Of a stretch of DNA of 35,725 nucleotides, positions 3,301 to 17,676 are shown in pieces (the stretch's first letter is position 1; the number at the start of each line of letters is the position of its first letter). The DNA lies in IMG/VR virus record IMGVR_UViG_3300045988_127927, positions 1-35,725 of that record; one strand, 5' to 3'. The position numbers and the translations under genes are program-made. The DNA is from a virus. A model generated the notes under the pieces. It did no database searches. It saw nothing but the letters and a program-made list of their open reading frames with translations, and was not told the DNA's origin.

Positions 3301-4814
3301 TTTCTTCGGCGTTCCGCTGGTTGCTGGATAACGTGGTACGCCCGGTATGGGACGGTATTCAGAGCGTCATTAGGGGCGTGTGGGAAAACGGAATTAAGCC
3401 CGTATTTGACGCGCTTACTAATTTCGTTACCCGTACTATTCCCGACGCTTTCCGTAACGCGGTGGACGCTATCGGTCGTTTCTGGAATGGCATTGTTGAT
3501 GTTGTGAAGCAGCCGGTTAAGTGGGTTTTGCAGACCGTCGTTAATGATGGTTTTATCCGTAACTTTAATAACCTTGCAGGCACTTTCAACATTGGTAAAA
3601 TTCCTGAGATTAACCTCTCAGGTTGGGCAACCGGTGGTTATACCGGTAAGGGCGGCAAATATGAGCCCGCCGGTATTGTCCACCGTGACGAGTTCGTCAT
3701 TAGGAAAGAGGCGCGGCAGCGTTTCGAGAGGGAAAATCCCGGCGTTCTGGATCATCTGAACCGTACCGGTGAACTACCGGCGGCCTCGCTGGTTGGTGCT
3801 AGTGCGCCGCGTGTCGGTGAATCCTACGCCGCGCCGTTCGGTGTGCGTGATAGCCGCGTGCCCGGCTTCGATATCGGCGGCGTGATATCCGACGCTATTA
3901 ACACTGGTGTAAATGTTGTAAATGCTGGTGTAAATGCTGTACGTGAGCTTGCAGGCACGGCGGCGGGTAAGGTTCTGGACGTGGCTATCACCCCGGCTAA
4001 GAACCTCATTGCTGGTATCGCTGGTTTGTTCCCCGGCTACGCGGGCGACGTGATGCGCGGCGGCGGTGACGCGATTCTCGACGGCGCTAAGAACTGGGTT
4101 GTTGAGAAGCTCAAGGGCAAGGACGAGCACGGCAGGGACGCGGCAAGCGCTCACGCCGTGGCCCCGTCCGGCGGCGGCGTGATGCGCTGGCGTGATACCG
4201 TCGTGCAGGCGCTGGGTATCGCCGGTTTGCCCGCTACCGACGCTTATATCAATGCGTGGTTGAGCCAGATTCAGAGTGAATCTAACGGTGACCCGAACGT
4301 TACACAGAGCGGGTATGTCGATATCAACACGATTACCGGCGATTTGGCTATGGGTCTGGTTCAGGTTATCGGTGCGACGTTCGCCGCGTTCCGTGACCCG
4401 TCGTTGCCTAATAACCGTTTGGATCCGCTGGCTAACCTGGTTGCGGGTATGCGCTACGCTACCGCGCGCTACGGTTTCGGCGGGCAGTTGGGGGTTATCG
4501 GTCATGGCCACGGCTATAGCGGCGGCGGTCTAGTGAATGGTTCTACCGCGTTTAAAAACGCGATTGTTCCTTCTCTTTATGACCGAGGCGGTAAAATTAA
4601 GCAGGGTGTGCAGGTGATTGACCATCGCCGCGCTACCCCTGATTACGTGCTGACCGATAGCCAGTGGAAGACCATGTATTCTATTGCGAACCACACGGCA
4701 CAGAGCACGACTAACGCCGGTATTACTATCGGCAACGTCTACGGTCTGGATGCCGTGGACGTGGCAGAGGAGATTATGAAGAGGAAGCGTCGAGAGGAGC
4801 TACTGAGTGCCTGA
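324..4814 (+). CDS. tape measure protein (1496 aa) with C-terminal lytic transglycosylase (SLT-like) domain
   Basis: It is the largest ORF and sits after the chaperone pair. The N-terminus is Ala-rich coiled coil and there are hydrophobic central segments and W-rich 45-aa repeats. The motif WLSQIQSESNGDPNVTQSGYVDINTITGDLAMGLVQV (about nt 4250-4370) resembles an SLT/lysozyme-like catalytic region. Confidence 0.95.
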   Translation: MEVLAAIELATSYLTLAVETSTLSKQVSKALSGVGSIGARAGREIGDGMANGFSQTKNIDIEGLRAKVESADRALAQSADIMARKRAAAASTIKQAQENVSAAMSKTEAANARLGAAESRLNSLRANGGSADAIARAEAAVHSARASVSTATSGMYGAEQRLVSAREKYTSISRTAVSQTTAHAQALKAAKADLREAEAATGALGGATEKATGRFAGFRNAFSKSFSGLRGTVDKNMQEAFSGVAAQAEHAGRESSGRFKSAFTGTIAAAGGLFAGVGIFNAGKDALFKAGDLEQSVGAVDAVFKGSADKMHAYADAASDTVGISKNAYNELASVLGASLKNGGTSIDELGDKTNSLIGLGADLASLYGGTTKDAIDAISSALRGEMDPIERYGISLNDAALTAKGLEMGITKTGGAFTTQQKQLITQALLFEQSKDAQGNFAKESDTFAHKMQVANARLEDMSTKIGGAILPVVVKIMDVFGKALSPVLTEVSGGFTAFGAAWEKFDGDITSAGFPGFMEGAAFVARNVWETIKNAFQNGIIPLFRDHVMPVLDTVGTAFMDFFKGIYGFQDYGEPVSVFNQIGGAIRDIGKWLVENVGLWAPFAAGITAAFTAWSTYQKTITLVKVAQEALNKASAAFSKTNVILVVIGLIVGGLILAYNKIGWFKDFVDNSIKVIGDVFVWLYENAVKPAFEWIVEAIKGVIDWWNTSFVPAFNEGVKIVGDVFNWLYENIVKPVFEGVKGAIEGVVDWWNTSFVPAFDAGVRAVGAVFEWLYNNVVQPVWTAIKTVIAVVIAVILTIFDGLKAVVENVLAPIFKWLYENIIIPVWNGIKDIISGFLDWFNNTLVPAVKTVIDILGNIFNWLRDNVVMPVWNGIKGIIDGVVQWFNNTVAPLFQTASNIIGDIFKWLWNNVVSPVWENIRRGIDVVVQWYSGVVQPLIKSVTDAIGSVFRWLYDNVVKPVWDSIQNVIRAFTDYFNGVIFPAIKATIDAISSAFRWLLDNVVRPVWDGIQSVIRGVWENGIKPVFDALTNFVTRTIPDAFRNAVDAIGRFWNGIVDVVKQPVKWVLQTVVNDGFIRNFNNLAGTFNIGKIPEINLSGWATGGYTGKGGKYEPAGIVHRDEFVIRKEARQRFERENPGVLDHLNRTGELPAASLVGASAPRVGESYAAPFGVRDSRVPGFDIGGVISDAINTGVNVVNAGVNAVRELAGTAAGKVLDVAITPAKNLIAGIAGLFPGYAGDVMRGGGDAILDGAKNWVVEKLKGKDEHGRDAASAHAVAPSGGGVMRWRDTVVQALGIAGLPATDAYINAWLSQIQSESNGDPNVTQSGYVDINTITGDLAMGLVQVIGATFAAFRDPSLPNNRLDPLANLVAGMRYATARYGFGGQLGVIGHGHGYSGGGLVNGSTAFKNAIVPSLYDRGGKIKQGVQVIDHRRATPDYVLTDSQWKTMYSIANHTAQSTTNAGITIGNVYGLDAVDVAEEIMKRKRREELLSA
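2346..3425 (+). repeat. eight exactly phased 135-nt (45-aa) tandem repeats inside the tape measure gene
   Basis: Units start at 2346, 2481, 2616, 2751, 2886, 3021, 3156 and 3291. Each has the pattern x-G-D/N-hFxWLY(E/D)N-VV-P-VW..I...I..VV.W(W/F)N..V.P with Trp at codon 10. A further degenerate unit follows to about 3500. Confidence 0.85.
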
Positions 4815-5730
4815 CATGAGCAAACCCGCCCCTACGCTGTATTTGCACGCGGGCGGTCTGGACGGCGAAGTTTTTAACTTTTCCTCAGTGGCGACTACGG
4901 CGTTTACCGCGCTAGAGGGTTTGGACGGTTTCGGTATCCCTGAGCCTGACTGGCGCACGGTGCAGCGGAACGACGGCGGCGGCTCTTATGTGCGTTCGCT
5001 CCGGTTGAAAGAGCGTGAACTGTTTATCCCGCTCATGATTTGGGGTGAAAGCCAGGCGGAATGTCTCGCTAATTGGGATGCACTGGTAGCGGCTATGAAT
5101 CCCCGGGTAGGTGAATCGTCCGTGCTGGAGGTTCGCCGCCCGGGGCAAGCCCCGCGCTTTATAAACGTCGTTTATAAATCTGGTCTGGGTGGTAATTTCG
5201 GCAATGACTTTAGGGGCTGGCACTATAAGGTAGGGCTAACCCTAATTGCTCATGATCCGTATTTCTGGGAATCTGACCAAATGCTCAGCTGGAATGTGCG
5301 AGGCGACTACAAGCCGTTTATTAGCGGCGGCGAAATGGTGAAGACACACAAGTTTTTCCCCGTGATTCTGTCGCCGTCCGTGGTGAACGGTTCCCGTGAG
5401 ATTACGATTAGCGGGGATGTGGATTCAGCCCCTATCTGGCAGATTACCGGCGCGGTAACGGATGTTCGAGTAACCAACGTAGAAACCGGTGAGTCGTTCA
5501 GCATCACGGGCAGCATTGCGCCGGGCGAGACTGTCACGATTGATACTACGGTGTTAGACATTTATTCACAGAATGACCGTTCGGGTAATCTCTGGGATAG
5601 GCTAACCACGGATTCTACGCTATTCCGTCTAGGTACTGGCAGGCACACTATCAAGGTGACCGGCTCCGGCATGGACGAGCGTTCAGAAATTGCGTTGATT
5701 TATAAGCCCCGCTACGTGAAGGGAATCTAA
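4807..5730 (+). CDS. distal tail protein (Dit-like)
   Basis: Sits immediately after the TMP. The GTG at 4807 lies 7 nt after GAGGAG and overlaps the TMP stop; an alternative ATG is at 4816. Size (307 aa) and position are typical of siphovirus Dit. Confidence 0.65.
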   Translation: MPDMSKPAPTLYLHAGGLDGEVFNFSSVATTAFTALEGLDGFGIPEPDWRTVQRNDGGGSYVRSLRLKERELFIPLMIWGESQAECLANWDALVAAMNPRVGESSVLEVRRPGQAPRFINVVYKSGLGGNFGNDFRGWHYKVGLTLIAHDPYFWESDQMLSWNVRGDYKPFISGGEMVKTHKFFPVILSPSVVNGSREITISGDVDSAPIWQITGAVTDVRVTNVETGESFSITGSIAPGETVTIDTTVLDIYSQNDRSGNLWDRLTTDSTLFRLGTGRHTIKVTGSGMDERSEIALIYKPRYVKGI

Positions 5731-5735: not shown

Positions 5736-6839
5736 ATGTCCGTTCAGGTTTTGATGAGGGATGAGAATTACCGCCCGCGCGGTTTCCTCATCGCGTCCAA
5801 GGTCGAGATGATGCGCCGTCTCAACCGACCGGACACGTTCATAGTGAATGTGTCGGCAGAGTCGGCGCAGCAGGCGACCCGTCTACGCGAGGGTTGGGGG
5901 CTGGTGGTGCAGGACGGTGATTTTAAGGTGTCCGGTGTAATTACGCAGTTCTTCCGTACGGCCAAAGATAATAATCTTGAGGTTGAGGTGACGTGTACCT
6001 CTGAATTGGTGTTCCTTGGTGACCGTCTCACGTATCCAGACCCGGCGCATGAGGAGACTCAGCAGCAGGCCGCCCGCTGGAAGGAACGCGGCGCGGCTGA
6101 GACGGTCATTAAGAATCTTGTCGCTAAAAATCTTGGTGTCGAGGCTCTGGAGTCCCGCCGTATCCCTGGGTTTGCGGTTGCGCCGTCTCAGGGGCGCGGG
6201 GGTGATGCCTCCGTGGACACGCGCCTAAAAAACTTGCTGGATGTGTTGGAGCCGCTGGCGACCGGCGGCGGGTTGCGAATGAACGTTCAGTTTCAACCGG
6301 GCGCGCTGGTCTTCGACACGATCCCAACCCGTAACATATCGCGCCGCGTCCGCCTATCCTGGGTTTCCGGTGAGGTCATCGGTTGGGAAATGACCGACCG
6401 CGCCCCGTCCGTGACCGCCGTTATTGTCGGTGGACAGGGTGAAGGTGTAGACCGTCGCCTAGACTCTAGGCAGCGTCTCGATTCGTGGGGGCGGCGCATC
6501 GAGATTTTCAAAGACCGACGCGATACCGACGAAGCGGACGCGCTGGAAAAGACGGCAAATGAGGAGCTGGATAAGGGCATCTCAGAGCGCATTATGAAGG
6601 TCACCGTACAAGAGAGTGACACGCGAAAATTTGGTGTAGCGTTTGATGTTGGAGACACTATCACGCTTGACGTAGCACCAAATGTCACCCCTTATGATTC
6701 GCGCGTCGTGGAGGCTAAAATTATGTGGAGCGAGAATACGCGTACCGTCGAGCTAACCGCCGGTGCGCTTGATCTGACGCTCTCACAGGAACGTATCGAG
6801 CGGTTGCGCCGTGAAATTGCGCAGCTGGCAACCGTCTAA
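5736..6839 (+). CDS. minor tail protein, tail tip/hub-like (possibly siphovirus Gp37-like family)
   Basis: 367-aa ORF directly after Dit, tightly packed. The family assignment rests on position and size only. Confidence 0.5.
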   Translation: MSVQVLMRDENYRPRGFLIASKVEMMRRLNRPDTFIVNVSAESAQQATRLREGWGLVVQDGDFKVSGVITQFFRTAKDNNLEVEVTCTSELVFLGDRLTYPDPAHEETQQQAARWKERGAAETVIKNLVAKNLGVEALESRRIPGFAVAPSQGRGGDASVDTRLKNLLDVLEPLATGGGLRMNVQFQPGALVFDTIPTRNISRRVRLSWVSGEVIGWEMTDRAPSVTAVIVGGQGEGVDRRLDSRQRLDSWGRRIEIFKDRRDTDEADALEKTANEELDKGISERIMKVTVQESDTRKFGVAFDVGDTITLDVAPNVTPYDSRVVEAKIMWSENTRTVELTAGALDLTLSQERIERLRREIAQLATV

Positions 6840-6855
6840 GAAGGAGGGCGAAAAC

Positions 6856-7884
6856 ATGGCAGATGAACGCATCATTACGGGCGTGCGCACCGTAGAAGAA
6901 TCTTTCCCCGTAGTTAATAAGCCACTAACGGGTGAGCAGTGGAGTAGTGTTACTACGGCTTTCGGTAATGGCACCATCGACGAAGGAACCGGCGATTACC
7001 GCGTAATCCTGGACAATGCATCTAATACGGTGTCGGTCGAGCCGCCCTCCCAAGCGAGCTTTGTTCATGCTACGGTTGGGGGATATTATCACCGCGTTTA
7101 CGGGCGTGTTACGCTCCCGTGCCCGCCGGTCACCACCACCACCACCTATATTTTGGCTATCGTGCTAGACCCGCTCCGACAGGCAACCGAGCCGGTCAAG
7201 CTGGAGCTATTTAAGGCACCTATCACGTATTCCGGTGGACGTAAATATGTGGTGCTTGCTGAGATTACGCGCCGCCCGAATGAGCTTCTTTCACAGGCGA
7301 CGGTGAAGATGAAGAAGCCGAGCATTGCCCCTACGATCACGGTTCAGGAAGTGGCCGGTCTACCGGACGCGAAAACGCAGCCTTTCGGGACTATGGCCTA
7401 CGTGAATAGCGAACGTTCGCTTTATCGCCGTTCCGCTGTTGGTGGTTCCGGTGATGTGTGGGCGCGCGTTATTGGTGCACGTCAGACCCCGGTTCTGGGT
7501 ATGCCCGGCTGGTCTCTGGCACCTATTTCACCGAATAACGCGGGCATTATTACTACCCCTATTACCGAGGGCTTCTATTGCCAGTTCTCCGGTATCTTGC
7601 GCCGTGAAGCGTTCGATTACACGGTGGGCTGGGAAATGTCTAACCTGGGTGTGCTCATTCCTGAACCGCTCCGTACCAAGACGTACCGTGAAACTATTTT
7701 CCCCGCGTTCTGGAACACTAGGGCATCGGGTGTTTTCCCGTTGATCTGTCGTATTCAGTTCCGCACGGGTGAAATTCATGTGCGAGCAAATAACAGTACC
7801 CCTATCCCGTTCGAGCGCGGCGGTGAGCTGCATATCCCGGCGGTGTCGTGGGTTGCGGACAAGTCAAATATCATTGATTGGTGA
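6856..7884 (+). CDS. minor tail protein
   Basis: The ATG at 6856 is preceded by AAGGAGGG (6841-6848). The track ORF starting at 6811 is an upstream extension overlapping the previous gene. Confidence 0.6.
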   Translation: MADERIITGVRTVEESFPVVNKPLTGEQWSSVTTAFGNGTIDEGTGDYRVILDNASNTVSVEPPSQASFVHATVGGYYHRVYGRVTLPCPPVTTTTTYILAIVLDPLRQATEPVKLELFKAPITYSGGRKYVVLAEITRRPNELLSQATVKMKKPSIAPTITVQEVAGLPDAKTQPFGTMAYVNSERSLYRRSAVGGSGDVWARVIGARQTPVLGMPGWSLAPISPNNAGIITTPITEGFYCQFSGILRREAFDYTVGWEMSNLGVLIPEPLRTKTYRETIFPAFWNTRASGVFPLICRIQFRTGEIHVRANNSTPIPFERGGELHIPAVSWVADKSNIIDW

Positions 7885-7893: not shown

Positions 7894-8256
7894 ATGGCTA
7901 AGATTACGGCGCGGTTCAGCACGCCCGGCGGCAAACCGTACCGGGGGCGCGTGATTTTCTCCCCCCTGGCAGACGTGGTTCTAGGAGCGCGTGGCGACCG
8001 CGTAAACATTCTGGTTGGTGACTTCGAGGCACCGCTAGACTCTACCGGCTTCTTCTCGATTGACCTACCCCCGGGCGAGTACACGGCAAAATTTAAAATT
8101 GATAATGCGGATAGCGGGCAGGTGGGAAAGATTCGGGACGTACTAATCACGGTGAAGGGTGATTCTACCCTAGCGGATTTGATAGCGCCGCCCGCCGCGC
8201 CCGCCGGGGCTATCCGAGTAAACGAACGAGACCTAGAACGTGGAGTGATTGCATAA
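7894..8256 (+). CDS. small minor tail protein (120 aa)
   Basis: Lies in the tail operon. The N-terminal motif ARFSTPGGKPYRGRVIFSP resembles AKFATFQDGHTPVGTVEFVP at the start of the 9692 gene. Confidence 0.55.
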   Translation: MAKITARFSTPGGKPYRGRVIFSPLADVVLGARGDRVNILVGDFEAPLDSTGFFSIDLPPGEYTAKFKIDNADSGQVGKIRDVLITVKGDSTLADLIAPPAAPAGAIRVNERDLERGVIA

Positions 8257-8257
8257 C

Positions 8258-9691
8258 ATGGCACGATATGGCGATATTGTCCTAGTGACACTGGACGAGA
8301 ACAACGAGCTAGAGGGTGACGCGCTAAAGCACGTCGAGCGTGTGGCAGAGCGTGCCGCCGCTACCGCCGCCGCGTCTAAGCTGGACGCTACCGCGTTTGC
8401 TGATTATGTTGCGCAGGCGCAGGCGCGCGGTACTGTCGCGCCGGTCGAGAATCGTAGTGCGTCCCTGAACGCGGTCACTGAATTTAATGCAGATCCGACC
8501 GGTTCGGTGGATTCTACGGCGGCGATTAATCGCGCGATTCAGCAGGCGGCAGAGCGCGGCGGCGGCACCGTTCATCTGCCGGCTGGCACTTATAAGGTGT
8601 CCTATCCCTTTATCGAGCTGTTGGGCTCTGTTCACTTGCAGGGCGCGGGTCGAGAGTCCACCACTCTGTTTGTTGATACCGCTGTGCCGGTTCCGGTGAA
8701 GACCGCCGCTATTCACGCGGGCAATTATGACGAGCCGCGCCGTGGCACCGGAAATATCCTCATGGGTGTTAGCGACCTTTTCATCAAGCCTGAGTATCCG
8801 CTCCGTGAGCACACTAGCAATATCCCCGCTAATGTCGGCGGCATTGTTTTTCACACTGAGCTAGGGGTGAATCCGCATGAACCGGACGGGGCGCACCGCA
8901 TCGAGAACGTCATTATCTGGGATATGGCGTTTGGTATCGCGCTGTTTGGTCTGGATGACCAAGCGTGCCAGGTGCGTAACGTGCGTGTTCGTCGTACCCG
9001 TGAATTTGGTGTGTGCGTGGGTAAGCCGCTGGAGCACACACGCGCTAAGGTGGACGGTAAGCGCGAGACCGGCGCGGGCGACAATATCCTAGACGCGGTG
9101 GACGTGTCCGGCGCGAATATTAGCGGCGAGGGGTTCGCCGGTATCGAGTGCTATACGACTAATACTACGTTTACCGCGTGCAAGTCTTGGTACAACCGCC
9201 GTAGCAGTAGCGGCGTAGAGGGTGCTAAGGGTTCCATCTGGGATACCAAGGGCACCAATGCAGAGCACCCGCACGCCCCTATCAAGAACGGCGCGGGCTT
9301 CTATGTCCACGGTGGACGCAATATTTTCACAGGATGTACGGCGCAGGAGAACGGGGGCCACGGTTTCGCCCTGGTTGGTACCGCTAATCAGGTTGTCGGT
9401 TGCCGCGCCGCGTCTAGTTCATGGTGGGATACGTCCGGTAAGGCACCCAATAGCGCAGCTGATTTTTTCGTCGCAAACTGGGCATGGGGGCTAGTCATGA
9501 CCGGTAACATCGCACAGTCCGAATACGGCGAGAAGACCGGCGCGCGCTACGGCTATTTCTTCGAGTCATGGGGACATGACATTATCGCCCGTGGTAATGC
9601 CGCTATTGCACAGCCTACCGCGCTAAAGGCGGGTAGTATGGGTAAGAACGTGATTATTGAAGTCAATCAGGAAACCGTGAAGGGGGCATAA
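8258..9691 (+). CDS. tailspike-like protein with pectate-lyase-type right-handed beta-helix (putative polysaccharide depolymerase)
   Basis: The motif FNADPTGSVDSTAAINRAIQQAAERGGGTVHLPAGTYKV is the characteristic N-terminal signature of the pectate_lyase_3 / glycosidase beta-helix family. The ATG at 8258 follows the upstream TAA (8254-8256). Confidence 0.75.
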   Translation: MARYGDIVLVTLDENNELEGDALKHVERVAERAAATAAASKLDATAFADYVAQAQARGTVAPVENRSASLNAVTEFNADPTGSVDSTAAINRAIQQAAERGGGTVHLPAGTYKVSYPFIELLGSVHLQGAGRESTTLFVDTAVPVPVKTAAIHAGNYDEPRRGTGNILMGVSDLFIKPEYPLREHTSNIPANVGGIVFHTELGVNPHEPDGAHRIENVIIWDMAFGIALFGLDDQACQVRNVRVRRTREFGVCVGKPLEHTRAKVDGKRETGAGDNILDAVDVSGANISGEGFAGIECYTTNTTFTACKSWYNRRSSSGVEGAKGSIWDTKGTNAEHPHAPIKNGAGFYVHGGRNIFTGCTAQENGGHGFALVGTANQVVGCRAASSSWWDTSGKAPNSAADFFVANWAWGLVMTGNIAQSEYGEKTGARYGYFFESWGHDIIARGNAAIAQPTALKAGSMGKNVIIEVNQETVKGA

Positions 9692-10207
9692 ATGGCGTTG
9701 AGTTATGGCCGCGTTGTGGCTAAGTTTGCGACATTTCAGGATGGGCACACGCCCGTAGGTACGGTCGAGTTTGTGCCGTCTGATTGGGTGACTGATAGCG
9801 GAATCATTCACAGCCCCGCGCCGGTTATCGGCTGGGTGCGTGAAGATGGGCAGCTCTACGGTTCCGAGAAGGCTTACGCCTCCGAGACCCCCGGCGTGAA
9901 GTTGCTTGTTTCCGACCCTAAGCACCCGGCGCGGTACACGGCAACCCCGCGCCTGTATGATCCGGTGACAGGCGCGAGTATTCCAGCCCGTGCGTTCGAG
10001 TTCGAGATTAGGGCAGGCGCTACCGGCGAGATGGTGGAAGACCCGAGCGGCGGCGTTCGCGTTATCTCATCTAATGATGGTTTGTGGACTCTTGAGGTAC
10101 CGGCGGGTGCGTCTATCGTCGCCGTTGGTGATGGTCGATACGAAGCGCGCGGCCTATCTGTCGCCGCCGGCAATGATGGTTCCTGGGTGATTGGAAAGGA
10201 AGGCTAA
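9692..10207 (+). CDS. minor tail protein (171 aa)
   Basis: The ATG abuts the upstream stop. The N-terminus resembles that of the 7894 gene. Confidence 0.55.
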   Translation: MALSYGRVVAKFATFQDGHTPVGTVEFVPSDWVTDSGIIHSPAPVIGWVREDGQLYGSEKAYASETPGVKLLVSDPKHPARYTATPRLYDPVTGASIPARAFEFEIRAGATGEMVEDPSGGVRVISSNDGLWTLEVPAGASIVAVGDGRYEARGLSVAAGNDGSWVIGKEG

Positions 10208-10210
10208 ATC

Positions 10211-10531
10211 ATGGCACAGGCTGAAATCCGTGGCTTGCTGGAGGACGGGCGTGCCCCGTCCACACTGAAAGCTGAAATTCAGGAGATGATTACCGCCGCC
10301 GCCGGTGGTGGTGTCACCACTGAGACAGTCGCTAAGGCTCTAGGCGTGGCTATCGTGCGCAGCACTACCCGCCCGCCCGCTACCATGCACGGCGTACCGA
10401 CTATCTGGGTAAACCCCGCGCTGGAAGGTGCGCTACAGCCGGTACCCACGTTCACACTCAAGGAGAACGGCGCGATCTTGGAGATTGTTACGCCCGAACC
10501 GGCGGGTGGTGCAATGAATGACAACCTATGA
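10211..10531 (+). CDS. hypothetical tail-module protein (106 aa)
   Basis: Compactly placed ORF whose stop overlaps the next start. Confidence 0.5.
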   Translation: MAQAEIRGLLEDGRAPSTLKAEIQEMITAAAGGGVTTETVAKALGVAIVRSTTRPPATMHGVPTIWVNPALEGALQPVPTFTLKENGAILEIVTPEPAGGAMNDNL

Positions 10532-11543
10532 GCTGGTCACTAGGGCGGGCGTTGAAGCTGAGGTAGCTAGGCAGACGGCACGATTTGAAACCCGAGAAAA
10601 GAACTTCGGTTTTAAACCGGGCGAACATTATTATTCCCCGGTAACTTATGCCTGGCCTGACTTTTATAATGGCGCTAATTCTAAGTGGGCTAAATTCCTT
10701 GAATTTGGTAACACTTTGGGTATTGTCATTCTGAACAGGTCTAGTGGTGATTGGCTTTCTAAGCGCCCTGATGTTGATTTTGCGACTCAGGGTTCTATGG
10801 CTCTTAGCGCGGGTGCCCGGCGCGTGTCGTTCTATATTAAGACGCGACACGGCGCTATGTTCGAGGGTATGCCTGTTTCTTACAGGGATAAGATCGCGAC
10901 GAATCTAAACGTTGATTTGTCAGCTATTACGCCTTTTACGGAAGATTTTATTATCGAGTCCGCGCGGGCGGTTAAGAATGATTATCCTGATATTCCGGTT
11001 AATATTTTTCTTGACGAGACAAACCCGTGGATTGAAATGGATTTGCAGAATAAAATCATTGAAGCTTACGTAAGGCTTTATAATCGGCTAAAGCGTGAGC
11101 TTGGTAATGATTGTTTGATTATTATCAATCCTGGTTCTAATACGCCGGCTTCTATGATGGCGGCGTGTGATGTGGTTTTGTCCTATGAGTCGAACGCGGC
11201 GAAATATCTAGATCCTGGCACTCAGTGGATTCACCCTGAGCATTACAAGGGTTTCCCATCGTGGAGGTTCTGGCATGTGATTCATGGTGCTACCCCTGAG
11301 AATATTGATGCCGTGTTCGCTAAGGCCGATAGCCTGGGTATTGGTCATCTTTACGTTACCGACCGCACATTCAAGGTTGGCGGCGGCTCTGAGAACGAAC
11401 CGGAAGAAAACCCCTACGATAAGCCGCCCTCTCAGTGGGTAGAGAACCGCGTGAAGGCTTGGATTGGTGGCACGTTGCCGTTTGAGCAGCGCCTATCAGC
11501 TTTGGAGGCAAAGATTAAGGAATTGGAGGCAAAGCATGTCTAA
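10518..11543 (+). CDS. spherulin-4 / GH135-like putative glycoside hydrolase with C-terminal coiled coil
   Basis: The ordered motifs W..F, GIVILNRSSGDW, RVSFYIKTRHG and VNIFLDETNP parallel the conserved blocks (vIvNPnnGPG, GYVhTsYg, GIFfDE) of the spherulation-specific family 4 TIM-barrel fold. The protein ends in LSALEAKIKELEAKHV. Confidence 0.5.
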   Translation: MTTYELVTRAGVEAEVARQTARFETREKNFGFKPGEHYYSPVTYAWPDFYNGANSKWAKFLEFGNTLGIVILNRSSGDWLSKRPDVDFATQGSMALSAGARRVSFYIKTRHGAMFEGMPVSYRDKIATNLNVDLSAITPFTEDFIIESARAVKNDYPDIPVNIFLDETNPWIEMDLQNKIIEAYVRLYNRLKRELGNDCLIIINPGSNTPASMMAACDVVLSYESNAAKYLDPGTQWIHPEHYKGFPSWRFWHVIHGATPENIDAVFAKADSLGIGHLYVTDRTFKVGGGSENEPEENPYDKPPSQWVENRVKAWIGGTLPFEQRLSALEAKIKELEAKHV

Positions 11544-12084
11544 TTTTCGTATCCCGACCCTGAACGCGGCGGGTGAGTTCACCGGCTCCGCTCTTGCGCA
11601 CATTCAGAAGGTGGCGAGCGCGGCGGGCGGCGGCGGGGGCACCGCTACCGTTCGAGATACCGGGTGGCGGCGTGTTGATTCGCCTAATCTCGCTTCTGGT
11701 TCCGTGTTTTTCCGCCGTGTCGATAACCTTGTTTCTGTTACGGTTCGCGGCGGTTCTTGGGATACGGCTACTATTAAGCCGTCGGCCTCGCGCGCACCTA
11801 ACGGTAGTCCGTTCGGTGATCTGGGTTATCGTACCCGCCTCGCGATTAACATTCTTCCGGGCTTCCGTGCGCTAACCCCGGTGATTGCGCCCGTGATGAC
11901 TGACGACGGCGAGTCGGTGGGGATGCTGATTATGTCGAATCCGTCGGACGGCAACCGCCTGTCTTTCCGTGGCTTCCGTAACGGCCAGAAACAGGATGTA
12001 GCTAACGTCTATTTGCGGTTCCCTATTCTCACGTGGATTACGTCTGAGGATTGGCCGGCCGAGCTACCGGGCGAACCGGCTTAG
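11536..12084 (+). CDS. putative receptor-binding / tail fibre tip protein (182 aa)
   Basis: ATG at 11536 within ATGTCTAA, overlapping the upstream stop. It is the last tail gene before the lysis cassette. It has a Gly run followed by beta-rich sequence. Function is inferred from position only. Confidence 0.45.
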   Translation: MSNFRIPTLNAAGEFTGSALAHIQKVASAAGGGGGTATVRDTGWRRVDSPNLASGSVFFRRVDNLVSVTVRGGSWDTATIKPSASRAPNGSPFGDLGYRTRLAINILPGFRALTPVIAPVMTDDGESVGMLIMSNPSDGNRLSFRGFRNGQKQDVANVYLRFPILTWITSEDWPAELPGEPA

Positions 12085-12143: not shown

Positions 12144-12629
12144 ATGCCGCCTGATTTTTGGGCACAAATCAGTAGCAATTTTTGGATGGTTCTACAAGCT
12201 GGAACCGCTACCGCCGCCGCCTATGGTGCTAAATGGCTAAAAGAGCTACAAGCGACCAAGAAGAAGGAAGCAGCAGAGCGCCGGGCGCAAGATGCTGTTA
12301 TCCTTGCACGACTTGAAGCGCTGGCAAATCAGCAGAGCGCGGTTAAGGACGAGGTTAAGAATAGCCACGGTACTAATTTGCGTCATGATCTAGATATTGC
12401 TATCCAGAATTCGCAGGAGGCGCGCGATAATTCGACGCAGGCGCTAAAGATTGTCGAGCAAATCCGAGACTCCCTAGAAACCCTTACGGGCGACGTTAGG
12501 GAATCCAAGAAGGAGCATACGGATTTTCGCGAACGCCATAATCAGAGCACGGAAGAGATTCATGACCTTAATAAGCGAGTGAACGCTCTATTTTCTGCAC
12601 AGAACAAGAAGGAGAATAACCATGAGTAA
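12144..12629 (+). CDS. membrane-anchored coiled-coil protein (161 aa), lysis-cassette associated
   Basis: Has an N-terminal hydrophobic segment (FWMVLQAGTATAAAYGAKWL) followed by a long charged heptad-like region. Its stop overlaps the endolysin start. Confidence 0.55.
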   Translation: MPPDFWAQISSNFWMVLQAGTATAAAYGAKWLKELQATKKKEAAERRAQDAVILARLEALANQQSAVKDEVKNSHGTNLRHDLDIAIQNSQEARDNSTQALKIVEQIRDSLETLTGDVRESKKEHTDFRERHNQSTEEIHDLNKRVNALFSAQNKKENNHE

Positions 12630-13215
12630 CTACGTGGACATTACCCACTGGAACGCCACGTCTTTCACGGCGGCGAACCGCACCATTGACGATATTGACA
12701 CTATCGTCATTCATCACTGGGGCGTTGATGGTCAGCGCTTTGATGACGTGTGCCGCTTCTTCCAGAACGGCCCGGGCACTAGTGCCCATTATGTTGTTGA
12801 AGCCGGTAAGTGTGCGCAGCTGGTCGAACTGAAGGATATCGCGTGGCACGCGGGCGATTGGAATGCTAACGCTCGTTCTATTGGTATTGAGTGCCGCCCT
12901 GAGATGTCTGATGAGGACTTCGAGACTCTGGCGCACGTCATTGCGGATATTGAGACTTTCTACGGCAAGAGCTTCTACATTCACGGTCACAAGGATTATT
13001 TCAACACGGCGTGCCCGGGCCGCTGGTATGATCAGCTTGACCACTTGATCGAGCGCGTGAATGAGATTGAAGCTGGCATTGATAATGCACCGGCTCCGCT
13101 GTCTCATGCTGAGGTGGACGAGAAGCGCGCCGCCTGGGAAAAGCTCATGAAGGAGCTGGAAGAGGCTAAGGCCGCCGGTGAAGAAGTCGGTAAGTGCCTG
13201 GCACAGGTAAACTAA
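12622..13215 (+). CDS. endolysin, N-acetylmuramoyl-L-alanine amidase (Amidase_2/PGRP fold)
   Basis: Motifs IVIHHWG, AHYVV, WHAGDWNANARSIGIE and GHKDYFNTACPG are the zinc-amidase signature. Confidence 0.93.
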   Translation: MSNYVDITHWNATSFTAANRTIDDIDTIVIHHWGVDGQRFDDVCRFFQNGPGTSAHYVVEAGKCAQLVELKDIAWHAGDWNANARSIGIECRPEMSDEDFETLAHVIADIETFYGKSFYIHGHKDYFNTACPGRWYDQLDHLIERVNEIEAGIDNAPAPLSHAEVDEKRAAWEKLMKELEEAKAAGEEVGKCLAQVN

Positions 13216-13245: not shown

Positions 13246-13470
13246 ATGAACGAAACTCAGCGTAAGGCAATTTACGCATTTGTTACCGCCCTTATCCCCG
13301 TCGGTATCGTGTACGGTATCGTGACTCAGGAGCAGGCGGCGGTTATCGTGCCCGCTATCCTGGCTGGCCTGTCGCTTATCATGGCTTACGTGCATGTGCC
13401 CGCGCCGGGCGACGGTAAGCAGCAGAGCGACGCGCCGGTACCCGGCGATAGCGAGCGCGGCGACCTGTAA
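13246..13470 (+). CDS. holin (74 aa, two predicted TM helices)
   Basis: GGAGG RBS. Two hydrophobic stretches (AIYAFVTALIPVGIVYGIV and AAVIVPAILAGLSLIMAYV) and a charged C-terminus. Sits directly after the endolysin. Confidence 0.75.
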   Translation: MNETQRKAIYAFVTALIPVGIVYGIVTQEQAAVIVPAILAGLSLIMAYVHVPAPGDGKQQSDAPVPGDSERGDL

Positions 13471-13564: not shown

Positions 13565-13607
13565 AAGAAACCCCCTAGTTTGTGGTATAGCTAGGGGGTT
13601 TCTTTTT
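13565..13607. terminator. bidirectional intrinsic terminator between convergent late and leftward modules
   Basis: 14-bp stem (13565-13578 paired with 13591-13604; core AAACCCCCTAG / CTAGGGGGTTT), 12-nt loop, and a T-run on the + strand. Confidence 0.8.
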
Positions 13608-13615
13608 GCCCGGTG

Positions 13616-13870
13616 CTAGGTGAAGTTTTTCCGGTTAGCCTGTACTACGAATACGCGTGGCGTGAAGCCGTCGTATGTGGTTCGGTATCTGGGGTACCGG
13701 GTGCGACACAGCATCTCCACCATATCGCCGGTGAACTTAGTAGCAATGACACGGTACCGTTCTCCGGTCTCCGTTTCGTAGCTGGCTACCCATTCCGAGG
13801 CGGTGAAGCCAGGGTACCGCGCGGCGACCGCACCGGCGTACTCATAGCCGCGCTCTTCGAGGTCAAGCAT
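13616..13870 (-). CDS. hypothetical protein (84 aa)
   Basis: Last gene of the leftward operon. Its ATG overlaps the upstream stop (ATGCTTGA). Confidence 0.6.
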   Translation of the reverse strand: MLDLEERGYEYAGAVAARYPGFTASEWVASYETETGERYRVIATKFTGDMVEMLCRTRYPRYRTTYDGFTPRVFVVQANRKNFT

Positions 13871-14255
13871 TATACGCCCCCAGTCCTAGCGCCTTTTCGA
13901 GCGTGTCGAGGTCTTCGAGCAGGCCGGGCAGCTTGTAACCCTTATTGAGCTGATATCCCAAATCAAGCAATTTCACGATTACGGTTATTTGCAGGCCGTG
14001 CGGATTATGCTGTGTCTTTCGGATGAATCGCGCGGCGGCTTCGAGCGCGCCGGGCGTAGCGGCGGGCGCGGCCTCTAAGTGCAACTCTAGGCACCGGCGG
14101 GCTTTGCGAATGTCTTCCGCGCCGCCTTTCTTTTTGCATCGCCATACGTATTTTATGGCCGCGCCTAGGAAATAGGGCGCTTCCATGATGAGCGGTTCGA
14201 GGGCTAACCCCTGAATCTTGCCATAGTGCGTCGGGTTGATCGGGTCGTTAGTCAT
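13863..14255 (-). CDS. DUF3310-family protein
   Basis: INPTHYGK ... LGAAIKYVWRCKKKGGAEDIRKARRCLE matches the DUF3310 signature. The ATG at 14255 is preceded by GAAAGGGAA; the track start at 14279 is a TTG extension. Confidence 0.75.
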   Translation of the reverse strand: MTNDPINPTHYGKIQGLALEPLIMEAPYFLGAAIKYVWRCKKKGGAEDIRKARRCLELHLEAAPAATPGALEAAARFIRKTQHNPHGLQITVIVKLLDLGYQLNKGYKLPGLLEDLDTLEKALGLGAYNA

Positions 14256-14790
14256 TGCAGGTTTCCCTTTCGAGTTCAAGCAGGAAAGTGCGAGCGTTTA
14301 GCGCCTTGAGCTGGATATAGGGCGGCTGGGTGGTATCGGTGAGAATTGCGGTGAGCCGGTCAATAGTTGCCGTGTACGGGCTTTCAGTCTTGACCGGCGC
14401 AGGCTTTGCCTTAGCCGTCTTAGCGGGCTTTACCGGGGCGGGTGCCAGGTACGCGGCGGTGAGCATCTTTACGGTGCTATCTACCGCCTTACGCGCCTTG
14501 ATGCGACCCGGCGCACGGGATGCCTTGAGAAATTCCAGCGCCTCCGCATAGGTGAAATGCCAGGCCGCGCTAGTAATCTTGATGCCCGCGCTACCTACGG
14601 CGTTAGGCGGGTAGTTGAACTTTTCGCCGGTGCCCGGGTGGTTAGCGAGGTACGAGTTTAGGGCTGCACCGGGTGCCTTGATGCCCGCCGCTTGTAGCAG
14701 TGCAAACGCGCGAATCCAGATTACGCCGTCATCTTCGACGTAAAAGGTCACGGGCTTGGTGTTGATGGTTTCGCAGTGAAGACGGGGCAT
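14248..14790 (-). CDS. hypothetical protein (180 aa), possibly DNA-binding, with Ala/Pro/Lys-rich linker
   Basis: ORF in the leftward operon with a low-complexity PAPVKPAKTAKAKPAPVK linker. No motif recognised. Confidence 0.6.
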   Translation of the reverse strand: MPRLHCETINTKPVTFYVEDDGVIWIRAFALLQAAGIKAPGAALNSYLANHPGTGEKFNYPPNAVGSAGIKITSAAWHFTYAEALEFLKASRAPGRIKARKAVDSTVKMLTAAYLAPAPVKPAKTAKAKPAPVKTESPYTATIDRLTAILTDTTQPPYIQLKALNARTFLLELERETCND

Positions 14791-14792
14791 GA

Positions 14793-15221
14793 TTAGCGCT
14801 TCCTTTCATTGTAGATTTGGGTTAGGTGGATGTGTACGCCGGGCGCGTCGCCGTACTCTTTGACCGCTTCTAGCTTGTTGCATCGCGCGTCATCTTCGAT
14901 AATGCCGCCGCTGGTAAGCGAGTCAAAGACCGCGCGGGTGAGCTTGTCAATGTCCGGTTTTACCGCGTGTATAGGGCCTAGCGTGCCTTGGAATAGCGCG
15001 CCGCTCTTAGGCTCTGTGAACACGAACCGTAGCGAGGCTTGGAACGCTCCGACGATTAGCGGCGCTCCGACCGCCTGGCTGGTCTTGAGGTGGTGCTTTC
15101 GCATGGTTTCGCGCCATTCTTTTGTTTTGGGGTTTGCTTCGACGGCGCGCCCCCGGTAGACGGTCTTTGATCCTTGCGGCACGGGACCAGGTTTACGGGC
15201 TATGAATGTTTTGTAGTGCAT
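14793..15221 (-). CDS. rusA: RusA-like Holliday junction resolvase
   Basis: KPDIDKLTRAVFDSLTSGGIIEDDARC matches the RusA catalytic Asp-rich block. RBS GAAAGG lies upstream. Confidence 0.8.
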   Translation of the reverse strand: MHYKTFIARKPGPVPQGSKTVYRGRAVEANPKTKEWRETMRKHHLKTSQAVGAPLIVGAFQASLRFVFTEPKSGALFQGTLGPIHAVKPDIDKLTRAVFDSLTSGGIIEDDARCNKLEAVKEYGDAPGVHIHLTQIYNERKR

Positions 15222-15242
15222 GTTCTACCTTTCGACATTTAT

Positions 15243-15272
15243 ACTATAAACCTATCTATGGGGTGAACACAA
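15243..15272 (-). promoter_or_regulatory. promoter copy P1 (leftward): TTGTGT-18 bp-TATAGT
   Basis: The minus strand reads ccTTGTGTtcaccccatagatagGTTTATAGTATAAATGtcgaaaggtagaacATG. This is near-identical to the four rightward copies. Confidence 0.7.
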
Positions 15273-15395
15273 GGCTAGACACTGTGAGTATAGTCACTCT
15301 TGCATAATGAACCTATATGCCCCTATATATGGTAGAATTGAAGTACAAGCTAGCAGTGATGTAACATTTCTTGTTTCCTTAGTTTGTTTGGGTTC

Positions 15396-15438
15396 AAAAA
15401 AAATACCCCCTTGATGGTGATTCGAGGGGGTATTTTTG
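15396..15438. terminator. orphan bidirectional terminator hairpin inside the divergent control region
   Basis: A8-TACCCCC ... 15-nt loop ... GGGGGTA-T5. The minus strand gives the hairpin followed by T8. Confidence 0.6.
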
Positions 15439-15455
15439 TGCCCAAAAACAGGAAG

Positions 15456-15488
15456 CAACCCCTGCCAAAAAAGGCACCCCTACCAAAA
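15456..15488 (+). repeat. two direct repeats CA(A)CCCCTrCCAAAA plus a third CCAAAAA tract at 15442
   Basis: gcaacccctgccaaaaaagg and gcacccctaccaaaata, read directly. Confidence 0.6.
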
Positions 15489-15502
15489 TATACCTAGACA
15501 CT

Positions 15503-15560
15503 TTTTACTAGGGGGGGAGGGTTATTTTACTAGGGGGGGTAGGGTTATTTTACTAGGGTA
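15503..15560 (+). repeat. 2.6 tandem copies of the 22/23-bp iteron-like repeat TTTTACTAGGGGGGG(T)AGGGTTA
   Basis: Copies at 15503-15524, 15525-15547 and 15548-15560 (partial). Confidence 0.9.
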
Positions 15561-15610
15561 AATAGAAGTAATTAAATAGAAGTTAAATAAATAGAAGTAA
15601 TTAAATCGAA
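15560..15610 (+). repeat. four tandem copies of the AT-rich 14-15-bp repeat AAATAGAAGTAATT
   Basis: Reads aaatagaagtaatt / aaatagaagttaaat / aaatagaagtaatt / aaatcgaagac. Confidence 0.9.
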
Positions 15611-15648
15611 GACGCGCGCGGGGCGCGGCGGGAATGATTGCAAGCACC

Positions 15649-15660
15649 GGGGGGGGGGGG
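15649..15660 (+). repeat. G12 homopolymer tract
   Basis: Twelve consecutive G, 50 nt upstream of the replication-organiser start codon. Confidence 0.9.
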
Positions 15661-15710
15661 CTATCATGGAGCCAGACCCACGCAACAATAATTTTTGAAA
15701 GGATCTGAAA

Positions 15711-16619
15711 ATGTCCATCACTGCAATTCTGGCAGCTGGCTATGTGACTCACAGCCCCGCCGGTGAACAGCTGAAAGCTTCTAGCCTCTCGACGTTGAAG
15801 GCGCTTGCTTTCTGTACCGGCGAACGCTCTAACGTTTGCTACCCGTCTATGCGTACCTTGCAGGAGATGACCGGGCACACCGCTAAGACGATTCGCGCCG
15901 CCCTGGACACTCTCGAAGAAGTCGGTTTCATCACCCGTAACCACCGCGTAGGAACCTCTAATGCCTACACCTTGCAGATTGACACTATGCGTTCCACTCA
16001 CCGCCGCCGCCGCTGGACTGAAACCCGTGACTCTGGCAACCCCTACGCGGGCGACCCTAACGCCGTAACCGTAGTAGACGAAATCCCCATCGAGGAACAG
16101 CCGGTTAAGCGTAGCGACTTCACAGAAGCCCTGGTAGAGGAAACTACCGCGCCCGCGCCGGTACAGACCGAGCTAATCCCCGCCTCCCCTGTCAAGAAGA
16201 CCAAGAAGCGCAGCACTACCACCACCGCCGCGCTTGATGAAGATTTCGACGAATTCTACAAGCACGCGTACCCGCGCAAAATGGAGCCGTTGAAGGCGCG
16301 CCGTGCATTTGAGAAGGCTGTGAAGAACGGCGCAGACCCGCGCGAAATTATCGAAGGCGCGCGCCGGTTCGCCGCCGCTACCGCCGCTAAGGGTAAAACG
16401 TATATCCCATACCCGGCTTCGTGGCTAAACGCGGGCGGCTGGATGAATGAGGCGGGCGATATTGCCCCGGTAGAACCTACCCCGTGGCAGAAGAAGACCG
16501 CGCGCCTTGTGCAGTCTATGCAGGCCGCCGCCGTGGTGAATAACGCGCCCGCGCTAACCGGCGTAGCACCCGCTACCGCTCCCGCCGAACCCCTGGCTAT
16601 CGAGCCTGGCTACATCTAA
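15711..16619 (+). CDS. replication initiation / replisome-organiser-like protein with N-terminal winged HTH
   Basis: LKALAFCTGERSNVCYPSMRTLQEMTGHTAKTIRAALDTLEEVGFI is HTH_36-like. The C-terminal block FYKHAYPRK..KARRAFEKAV...YIPYPASWLNAGGW is typical of phage replication organiser proteins. The gene is adjacent to iteron-like repeats. Confidence 0.7.
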   Translation: MSITAILAAGYVTHSPAGEQLKASSLSTLKALAFCTGERSNVCYPSMRTLQEMTGHTAKTIRAALDTLEEVGFITRNHRVGTSNAYTLQIDTMRSTHRRRRWTETRDSGNPYAGDPNAVTVVDEIPIEEQPVKRSDFTEALVEETTAPAPVQTELIPASPVKKTKKRSTTTTAALDEDFDEFYKHAYPRKMEPLKARRAFEKAVKNGADPREIIEGARRFAAATAAKGKTYIPYPASWLNAGGWMNEAGDIAPVEPTPWQKKTARLVQSMQAAAVVNNAPALTGVAPATAPAEPLAIEPGYI

Positions 16620-16630
16620 GGAGCGGCGAC

Positions 16631-17086
16631 ATGAATAAGCAGGAATGCGCAACGTTCTACGCACAGGCGGCAAAGGTTGATAGCCGCCTCCCTGATCGTG
16701 AATTTGATGAGTTCGACGCGTGGGAAATGCTTCTAGCGGATATTCCCCCTAAGTTCGCGCCTATGATTTTCCGTGAGATTTACCGCCGCGTTCAGGTTCA
16801 GCAGCTACAGCCGGGGCATATTGTCGAGGCGTGGGAAACCGTTCGTAAGGCGGTGAACGCCGCTATTGCCCGGTGCCTGTCTTTCGAGAAGCGCACGCGC
16901 GAGCTGGACGTGTCAGACCGTGAAGATGCCACGAAATTTAACGAGATTGTGGAAGCGCATAACGCGGCTGTGGATTCGCTACCGGGTGAGGTAGCGGCGG
17001 CCAATGGGTTTACTCACAAGGAGCTGGTACCTGTACCGGGTGAACGTGTGCCCGCGCCCGCCCCGGCGTGGTTTAAGTCACTGTAA
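16631..17086 (+). CDS. hypothetical protein (151 aa)
   Basis: AAGGAG RBS and compact spacing. Confidence 0.65.
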   Translation: MNKQECATFYAQAAKVDSRLPDREFDEFDAWEMLLADIPPKFAPMIFREIYRRVQVQQLQPGHIVEAWETVRKAVNAAIARCLSFEKRTRELDVSDREDATKFNEIVEAHNAAVDSLPGEVAAANGFTHKELVPVPGERVPAPAPAWFKSL

Positions 17087-17103
17087 AAAAGTTAGATTCT
17101 GGC

Positions 17104-17161
17104 TTGCGTTGCGCCCCCTGAAAGGTTTATACTATAAATGTAAGGCAACGAAGACCTTACA
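17104..17161 (+). promoter_or_regulatory. promoter copy P2 (TTGCGT-18-TATACT) plus 5' leader hairpin
   Basis: -35 at 17104-17109, -10 at 17128-17133, hairpin TGTAAGG-9 nt-CCTTACA at 17139-17161, then AGAAACCCAAACCGAAAGGAA. Confidence 0.7.
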
Positions 17162-17188
17162 GAAACCCAAACCGAAAGGAAGCCAGAA

Positions 17189-17599: not shown

Positions 17600-17624
17600 C
17601 CCCCGCCGGTTACCGGCAACCAAC

Positions 17625-17648: not shown

Positions 17649-17676
17649 ACACAAACCCCAAACCCGAAAGAAGGAC

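Follow-up and report, generated by a model that had tools for sequence, protein, structure and literature searches.

In the viral record IMGVR_UViG_3300045988_127927 of IMG/VR (35,725 nucleotides, analysed whole and referred to here as the window), the tail genes include two that encode different predicted glycan-degrading enzymes: a predicted right-handed beta-helix protein of 477 amino acids (aa) and, further downstream, a 341-aa spherulin-4 protein resembling glycoside hydrolase family 135 (GH135). We consider it likely that positions 7894-12084 encode one multi-part tail appendage of a siphophage of Rothia, in which these two enzymes would cooperate. The families, the fold, the conservation of catalytic positions, the position of the genes, and the recurrent pairing and fusion of the two enzymes are what the sequences and models show.

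Families, folds and catalytic positions of the two enzymes

The 341-aa protein matched Pfam family PF12138 (Spherulin4) with an E-value of 1.3e-10 (41.6 bits against a cut-off of 30.2), over residues 44-307 and profile positions 13-232 of 239, and a precomputed Pfam match to the same family was present in all 111 of its 111 database homologues. Its AlphaFold model, built from a 13-sequence alignment, had a predicted local distance difference test (pLDDT) score of 86 and a predicted template modelling (pTM) score of 0.83. The model consisted of a helix at residues 9-24, a barrel at approximately 37-300 in which eight strands alternate with helices, and two final helices (306-317 and 320-340). 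The top Foldseek match in the PDB was 5D6T, the Sph3 protein of Aspergillus clavatus with N-acetylgalactosamine (GalNAc) (E 1.1e-7; template modelling (TM) score 0.73 on the target and 0.56 on the query). A PDB profile search with the homologue alignment also found Sph3 (5C5G/5D6T, E 1.3e-3); an alignment profile was needed, as a single-sequence PDB search with the spherulin-4 protein gave zero matches. The Pfam match, the model and Sph3 as best match bore out an earlier reading of the window, made from its letters and open reading frames (ORFs) and here called the sequence-only reading, which had recognised a spherulin-4 / GH135-type triosephosphate isomerase (TIM) barrel. The three blocks on which that call was made (IVILNRSSGDW, FYIKTRHG and NIFLDETNP) hold columns that are invariant in homologues.

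Sph3, the founder of GH135, is a retaining endo-alpha-1,4-N-acetylgalactosaminidase of the galactosaminogalactan pathway, with Asp166, Glu167 and Glu222 as putative catalytic residues (PMC10485009). In a profile alignment to 5C5G, FLDE of the window protein fell on FFDE, NPGS on NPGA and YES on FEA of Sph3, with the Sph3 residue numbers obtained from the chain index by an inferred mapping (+50). As in Sph3, an Asp-Glu pair follows one strand (beta4 by strand count) and a Glu lies in a later strand (beta6), at the positions of Asp166, Glu167 and Glu222. D166, E167 and N204 of the window protein were invariant in 114 of 114 sequences and E224 was found in 113, the remaining sequence being gapped; this set included two phage proteins at only 28% identity. 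Because these catalytic positions are so strictly conserved, the comparison argues for the 341-aa protein being an active enzyme. The two proteins share PF12138 and the (beta/alpha)8 fold, but the window protein comes from a phage tail module and not from a polysaccharide synthesis cluster, has no membrane anchor, and is framed by flanking helices and a coiled coil, with homologues that bear fibre repeats or a fused beta-helix.

The short C-terminal coil described in the sequence-only reading was confirmed as a predicted helix whose residues show heptad spacing. Its hydrophobic residues at 322, 326, 329, 333 and 336 follow a 4-3-4-3 spacing over approximately 2.5 heptads, and the pattern LP.E.RL.ALE is conserved in homologues, where a further domain comes after the coil (e.g., homologue P0056 and phage VA460). 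A role of the coil as a virion-attachment device is speculative.

The 477-aa protein matched PF12708 (Pect-lyase_RHGA_epim) with an E-value of 1.8e-12 (48 bits against a cut-off of 27) at residues 73-158. This is the family named pectate-lyase-3 in the sequence-only reading, and the match lay on the segment quoted there as its signature. A weaker Beta_helix match (E 2e-4) followed this region, and PHROG tailspike families also matched the protein. A PDB profile search identified the AlgE4 epimerase (9e-12), a GH87 alpha-1,3-glucanase (3e-10) and phage pectin-lyase-fold proteins, with matches that mainly cover the N-terminal cap region of the beta-helix protein; its N-terminal ~65 residues are helical. 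Homologues carried PF12708 with or without PF13229, and many Asp, Glu and His columns were invariant among them. The listed Foldseek matches of its low-confidence AlphaFold model all belonged to the beta-helix group of lyases, epimerases, glycosidases, adhesins and phage tailspikes, including the HK620, Det7 and CBA120 tailspikes and the Klebsiella depolymerase Depo32, with TM scores of only 0.28-0.46. Because the model is poor, this search gives the fold class only.

Pairing of the enzymes and organization of the tail module

In the best 80 IMG/VR loci, searched with a profile of the beta-helix protein, a beta-helix gene stood beside a spherulin-4 gene in 55. Three arrangements were found, with the beta-helix gene upstream and small genes between (as in the window), immediately downstream, or fused to the spherulin-4 gene. 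The fused form was a single reading frame of ~820 aa in four contigs (L050, L051, L063 and L064); Pfam placed PF12708 N-terminally and PF12138 at 528-767 in the L050 and L063 fusions, and identity of the fused ORFs to the two proteins of the window was 41% and 60%. Pairing at this frequency, in three arrangements, indicates that the two enzymes are partners that have been kept together through rearrangement and fusion. Identity across the lineages of the paired families was 50-99%. Between the window and the related locus L017, the two enzymes (88.5% and 90.6% identical) were among the most conserved proteins of the module, the spherulin-4 protein being the most conserved of all, and the 182-aa, 342-aa and 120-aa proteins were the least conserved (63-70%).

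The genes form a single plus-strand late operon in which they abut or overlap and end with ordinary TAA or TGA stops. The ORFs of 7894-11543 were as the sequence-only reading described them, four of them ending with TAA and that of the 106-aa protein with TGA (Table 1). Both enzyme genes come after those of the tape measure, Dit and Gp37-like proteins and before those of the amidase and holin, so the claim that they lie within the tail module was upheld by the baseplate genes before them and the lysis genes after. Gene order showed an equivalent tail-module placement in L007, L017, L011, L013, L015 and Rothia phage Spartoi. The 182-aa gene downstream is a further member of the module. Two longest-ORF starts (6811-7884 and 11464-12084) are probably wrong: comparison with L017 pointed to an ATG at 6856 for the first, and the second gene starts at an ATG at 11536 that overlaps the spherulin-4 stop (ATGTCTAA). 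The genes at 8258-9691, 9692-10207 and 10211-10531 share one frame, and those starting at 7894 and 8258 are 1 nucleotide apart. A split gene or recoding was rejected because the stops are ordinary TAA or TGA, because the boundaries are the same in L017 (63-91% protein identity), and because the 120-aa gene is separate in all 19 homologues (a 121-aa gene, 63-92% identity), as it also is in L017.

The sequence-only reading had proposed a duplicated adaptor-plus-enzyme arrangement, each enzyme being preceded by a small protein with a shared N-terminal motif. The motif was present in both small proteins, as GKPYRGRVIFSP (G.P..G.V.F.P) in that of gene 7894 and GHTPVGTVEFVP (G..P.G.V.F.P) in that of gene 9692, with different spacing. 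A relaxed form occurred in 5 of 2242 six-frame ORF segments from nine loci, always near the N-terminus of a plus-strand tail-locus protein; this is far above chance, the shuffling expectation being 0.09 per 87 proteins. Direct homology of the 120-aa and 171-aa proteins was not supported (BLASTP E 0.81; hhalign probability 0.7%, on a different region) and was rejected; their sole connection, a weak one, was through family hidden Markov models (HMMs) that included third-party sequences. The proposed order also stood in part only, in that the spherulin-4 gene is directly preceded not by the 171-aa gene but by the 106-aa ORF, which the sequence-only reading did not mention. With this 106-aa gene separating the 171-aa gene from that of the enzyme, the layout does not amount to a plain duplication.

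The N-terminal ~115 residues of the 171-aa protein fell in an anchor-domain family, with G.V.F.P at residues 23-29. The HMM of the 171-aa family detected gp20 of Spartoi (E 2.4e-8), whose gene immediately precedes the spherulin-4 gene of that phage, and, in L011, the N-terminus of an 853-aa collagen and PF12708 fibre (E 1.2e-3). An HMM built from other loci only matched the 171-aa protein (E 2e-4) and its family (2e-5 to 1e-3), small proteins encoded immediately before long spherulin-4 genes (1e-15 to 1e-34), the N-termini of 757-856-aa beta-helix proteins, and the proteins encoded just after fused enzymes. Many IMG/VR loci had related domains beside spherulin-4 genes or, at E 1e-13 to 1e-34, joined N-terminally to beta-helix fibres. 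These profile matches solidly place the 171-aa protein in a family of predicted anchor-like N-terminal domains that, free or fused, travel with these enzymes. The 120-aa protein, with the N-terminal motif ARF...G.V.F.P, had just a weak link to this family: the independent profile scored it at E 0.14, and a profile in which the 171-aa family was included gave 2.6e-3. It matched a 176-aa protein whose gene comes immediately before that of the Actinomyces spherulin-4 fibre (BLASTP E 4e-4), and its residues 3-60 aligned with the N-terminus of the profile of PHROG 14726, 'tail fiber protein' (E 7.5e-4).

The C-terminal ~45 residues of the 171-aa protein (DG.W.L.VP.G) resembled, by eye, bacterial immunoglobulin-like repeat proteins, and matched a repeat that is present 8-10 times in unrelated proteins of 796 and 1841 aa (P0312 and P0311). 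A similar short end motif was seen in several proteins (NDGSWVIGKEG, DNGDGTLSIFIGE, DNNDGTATITLTTKE and RDGSLTIGATRE), at window 10050-10204, at L010 9478-10008 and, as C-terminal ends, at L015 9226-9660, 9670-9972 and 10001-11164.

A different N-terminal module of ~35 residues (consensus roughly RIPxL..G.FTG..A.IQKV), followed by a Gly/Ala-rich linker, was carried by the 182-aa protein (MSNFRIPTLNAAGEFTGSALAHIQKVA), the 106-aa protein (E 2e-3) and spherulin-4 proteins of other lineages. Its HMM matched the 100-aa equivalent of the 106-aa protein in L015 (E 5.8e-6) and, weakly, the beta-helix proteins of the window (E 0.33) and L017 (E 0.009), and the fused enzyme of L050 begins with it. The module, found on proteins with no other kinship, may be a common docking peptide. 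Its sites were window 11536-11640, 10211-10330 and 8258-8370, L013 10001-10110, L015 10025-10140 and L050 8486-8570. In the 106-aa protein, which was 84% identical in L017, part of the module was followed by a Gly-rich linker. The 182-aa protein, the least conserved of the tail module at 63% identity to L017, was matched by PHROGs 21909, 32123 and 3971 to the C-terminal end of longer proteins.

Table 1. Features of the tail and lysis regions of the window
Feature	Position	Strand	Basis or remark
Tape measure protein	324-4814	+	Pfam and PHROG matches
Dit	4807-5730	+	Pfam and PHROG matches
Sipho_Gp37-like protein	5736-6839	+	Pfam and PHROG matches
342-aa variable protein	6856 (probable start)-7884	+	start inferred from the L017 homologue
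120-aa small protein	7894-8256	+	candidate baseplate-proximal adaptor for the beta-helix enzyme
477-aa predicted right-handed beta-helix protein and polysaccharide depolymerase	8258-9691	+	PF12708
171-aa small protein	9692-10207	+	anchor-domain family at N-terminus
106-aa small protein	10211-10531	+	14-nucleotide overlap with the spherulin-4 gene
341-aa spherulin-4 / GH135-like (beta/alpha)8-barrel, predicted glycoside hydrolase	10518-11543	+	PF12138
F164-L165-D166-E167 codons	11007-11018	+	align with FFDE of Sph3; translation checked
N204 codon (motif NPGSN)	11127-11129	+	aligns with NPG of Sph3
E224 codon (motif YES)	11187-11189	+	aligns with Glu222 of Sph3; translation checked
C-terminal coiled-coil-like helix, LPFEQRLSALEAKIKELEAKH	11475-11537	+	AlphaFold helix 320-340, heptad spacing
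182-aa protein, candidate receptor-binding head	11536-12084	+	N-terminal module, Gly-rich linker, variable C-terminal domain
161-aa protein	12144-12629	+	ORF
Amidase_2 endolysin	12622-13215	+	Pfam PF01510, E 6.6e-19
Holin-like protein	13246-13470	+	Phage_holin_9, E 7e-5, under the family cut-off

The proposed appendage and competing explanations

Several homologues of the spherulin-4 protein had architectures of the kind seen in tail fibres. The Actinomyces homologues (592 aa) had ~260 residues of fibre-like repeats ahead of the barrel, and metagenomic Siphoviridae proteins were 463-1052 aa long. In Spartoi, gp22, encoded just after the spherulin-4 gene (gp21), had collagen repeats; in L015, the gene next to the spherulin-4 gene encoded a Peptidase_S74 chaperone domain; and one structural match in BFVD was annotated as a tip attachment protein J fibre-domain protein. 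In P0056 a domain homologous to the 182-aa window protein was fused after the barrel and coil (BLASTP E 3e-4), and the 429-aa homologue of Streptococcus thermophilus phage VA460 had a comparable C-terminal extension of ~140 aa. As homologues have fibre-like repeats, collagen neighbours or a C-terminal head domain, a virion-borne appendage with two enzymes is the best reading of the region.

Some related loci had other compositions. An Actinomyces naeslundii prophage (L010 6906-13591, MSRL01000020.1) encoded a 557-aa GH25 protein, the 592-aa spherulin-4 fibre and a 602-aa GDPD (glycerophosphodiesterase) protein next to an integrase; glycan, teichoic acid and peptidoglycan are possibly the targets of these three. 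In the tail locus of L015 (7449-14774), four domains with predicted enzymatic or processing roles came one after another: a 597-aa GDSL esterase, a 387-aa spherulin-4 protein, a 464-aa protein with a Peptidase_S74 chaperone domain and a 737-aa beta-helix protein of PF12708. In approximately 25 IMG/VR loci (L069-L097; e.g., L069 9026-11152 and L086 9101-12136), the spherulin-4 proteins were 683-1012 aa long, with ~325 N-terminal and sometimes ~400 C-terminal residues outside any Pfam family. A small anchor-domain protein was encoded directly upstream in most of these, and a beta-helix partner gene adjoining the spherulin-4 gene was detected in none.

In the proposed appendage, the anchor-like N-terminal domains of the proteins of genes 7894 and 9692 would tie the enzymes to the baseplate, and the shared ~35-residue module would help in mounting components there. 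The beta-helix and GH135-type enzymes would cut different linkages of a host envelope polysaccharide (capsule, slime or wall glycan), after which the tail tip would reach its receptor, with the variable 182-aa protein as putative receptor-binding head. By analogy, GH135 chemistry suggests alpha-linked GalNAc as substrate.

Some observations count against this proposal. The VA460 homologue lies between an annotated holin and an intron-split lysin (L001 7899-9188), which is atypical for a tail gene, and the homologue in the A. naeslundii prophage follows the GH25 gene and adjoins the integrase, again not a typical tail position. The N-terminal module and fibre repeats of some homologues are missing from the spherulin-4 protein of the window, in which flanking helices alone are present, so that its attachment is putative. 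Homology among the small proteins rests on weak scores and, because some HMM seeds were picked for carrying the motif, support for that family is partly circular. Confidence in the AlphaFold model of the beta-helix protein is low (pLDDT 55, pTM 0.57, 14-sequence alignment), and the enzymatic role of this protein is predicted from its family and fold class. Identity of the spherulin-4 protein to Sph3 is only ~16%, and substrate specificity is therefore not transferable from Sph3. Virion location, order of assembly, hydrolysis and substrate are likewise predictions from the sequences and models.

The sequence-only reading had also raised the possibility that the two depolymerases broaden host range. 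They might, accordingly, be alternatives for different host strains or capsule types, like the tailspikes of CBA120 and the enzymes of multi-depolymerase Klebsiella phages. Carrying several depolymerases is one known way for a phage to reach many hosts, and related loci add the GDSL esterase and GDPD proteins. Host-range cassettes, however, are usually the most variable genes, whereas both enzymes here are more conserved than their neighbours, the likely receptor-binding proteins among them, and the two families occur together across lineages, over the whole range of identities given above, even as one polypeptide. We therefore regard this explanation as unlikely, and because the enzymes are conserved and their families co-occur or fuse, cooperation on one envelope, with variable receptor binders, fits better. 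A lysis role for the spherulin-4 protein, as a non-virion accessory enzyme that cuts wall-linked polysaccharide from within in the manner of LysB of mycobacteriophages, would account for the VA460 homologue between holin and lysin, for the A. naeslundii homologue after a muramidase gene (GH25), and for the window gene being only two genes upstream of the amidase. We judged it distinctly unlikely. In most loci, collagen, Peptidase_S74 or beta-helix genes stand between the spherulin-4 and lysis genes, and many homologues have fibre-like repeats, a tail-protein N-terminal module, a head-like domain or a beta-helix fusion. In addition, inspection by eye (no predictor was run) found no signal peptide or transmembrane segment at the N-terminus of the printed sequences.

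That the TIM barrel might only bind glycan, as a receptor-binding domain that does not cut, appears very unlikely to us. Receptor-binding proteins of phages often take over carbohydrate-active folds as modules for binding, and Sph3 itself binds the polysaccharide Pel with no hydrolysis (bioRxiv 10.1101/113696). A pure binder, however, would not be expected to keep the three catalytic positions and N204 down to 28% identity, and receptor-binding parts usually vary, whereas this is the most conserved protein of the module. The spherulin-4 gene could also be an auxiliary host-metabolism gene that acts inside the infected or lysogenic cell, in spore-like development or on the cell's own exopolysaccharide. 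Support for this comes from the Pfam name, from a report on Atacama soil viruses in which viral "spherulation-specific family 4" proteins (mean 1265 aa) were read as sporulation genes (PMC8269230), and from fungal Sph3 being required for making its own polymer (PMC9860509). We find this scarcely credible: the gene is in a late structural operon in most loci, not in a moron position, the fibre architecture and tailspike-type fusion contradict it, and the Atacama mean length fits tail fibres. The deduced hosts, Rothia, Actinomyces and S. thermophilus, are moreover non-sporulating. The sporulation reading of the viral genes, the sole treatment of such proteins in the phage literature found, is probably a misreading that rests on the family name.

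If the two-enzyme appendage is active as proposed, GH135 would extend to bacterial targets, and the region would be a natural example of two different glycanases acting as one phage appendage. It would also be a pointer to an uncharacterised surface glycan of Rothia and relatives, a source of new antibiofilm enzymes for oral actinobacteria, and a correction of the name-driven sporulation reading of viral genes. A broader proposal, which we put forward tentatively and consider rather doubtful, is that the spherulin-4 proteins of phages form a large and so far unrecognised class of endo-alpha-N-acetylgalactosaminidases carried on the virion, obligately paired with a beta-helix, that cut a Pel-like or wall-linked polymer rich in GalNAc or galactosamine (GalN) in Rothia, Actinomyces and S. 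thermophilus. In that case GalNAc/GalN polymers would coat Gram-positive bacteria of oral and dairy habitats and control whether phages can infect them, and the "sporulation" genes of desert-soil viruses would be tail depolymerases.

A Pel-like substrate is a lead only. Pel is an alpha-1,4 GalN/GalNAc polymer encoded in streptococci and actinobacteria (PMC7112168, and the title of PMC9135694). Pel loci are present in actinobacteria and in streptococci including S. thermophilus, in strains of which the locus is variably present (PMC7112168), and this overlaps the host groups of the spherulin-4 phages. The literature searched yielded nothing usable on Pel in Rothia or on the composition of Rothia surface polysaccharide. 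The PelA hydrolase domain (GH166) and Ega3 (GH114) are TIM barrels that cut alpha-1,4 GalNAc/GalN polymers, with the same general fold and chemistry as GH135. Both were absent among the top 50 Foldseek PDB matches listed for the spherulin-4 model, in which a GH191 alpha-galactosaminidase (9ep5) was at rank 7.

Related phage systems, genome and host

Studied phage depolymerases are mostly beta-helix or beta-propeller proteins from phages that infect Gram-negative bacteria, and to our knowledge the GH135 catalytic family is known only from the processing of fungal biofilm polymers. Beta-helix tailspikes (those of P22, HK620, Det7 and CBA120, Depo32, and phi29 gp12) share the predicted fold class and the tail locus of the window beta-helix protein and were among the structural matches of its model. 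Unlike them, it is coupled, and in some relatives fused, to an unrelated TIM-barrel enzyme, and known multi-tailspike phages carry several beta-helix enzymes, each for different hosts. The tail depolymerase is thus known as a kind; within the literature searched, no description was found of the GH135 family in such a role, of its regular association with a beta-helix enzyme or of a modular layout that is split in some cases and fused in others.

The comment in the sequence-only reading that a GH135-type fold is unusual in a phage was well founded. Spherulin-4 homologues were found in only two phages (four records) among 50,697 phage records, as gp21 of Spartoi and the 429-aa ORF of VA460, and neither a phage spherulin-4 protein as tail enzyme nor one as beta-helix partner was described in the literature searched. 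Viral contigs are a richer source, as at least 302 in IMG/VR have a spherulin-4 relative; hundreds of viral contigs have the family among their tail genes, where it is coupled with a beta-helix enzyme, up to gene fusion. The viral proteins (Spartoi gp21, VA460, metagenomic Siphoviridae and Atacama) have a homologous catalytic domain, 28-51% identical and with the invariant residues unchanged; they are annotated as hypothetical (as in both phages) or read as sporulation proteins, and are unstudied in the literature searched. The 90% cluster of the window protein has 336 members, from contigs of 35-37 kb, one of which (NCBI DAX51402.1) bears the automatic name "Spherulation-specific family 4".

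The host was deduced from names attached to homologues. Chromosomal contigs of Rothia sp. and R. mucilaginosa encode beta-helix homologues with 56-57% identity, the cluster of P0003 (whose representative is 71% identical to the spherulin-4 protein) includes a protein of an uncultured Rothia, and related contigs originate from human oral metagenomes. Based on these three observations, Rothia, a bacterium of the mouth, is probably the host. A host scan of genome contigs gave distant matches only (Saccharibacteria and Xanthomonadales metagenome-assembled genomes), and a nucleotide search against phage genomes gave zero matches. Identity of the terminase to those of isolated phages or actinobacteriophages did not exceed 40%.

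An exact 55-bp direct repeat occupies both ends of the window (1-55 and 35671-35725). As the ends carry the same repeat, a trace of the assembler, the window is a complete circular siphophage genome with 35,670 bp of unique sequence. The opening of the circle falls between tail-chaperone and tape measure genes. tRNA genes were not found in the window, and an integrase was seen neither in L007, a contig nearly identical to the window, nor in L017. Integrases are present in the related lineages L011, L015 and L009; the window lineage may not integrate. Genes of the early region (window 13600-27900) encode RusA, HTH_36, a YqaJ exonuclease, RecT and SSB.

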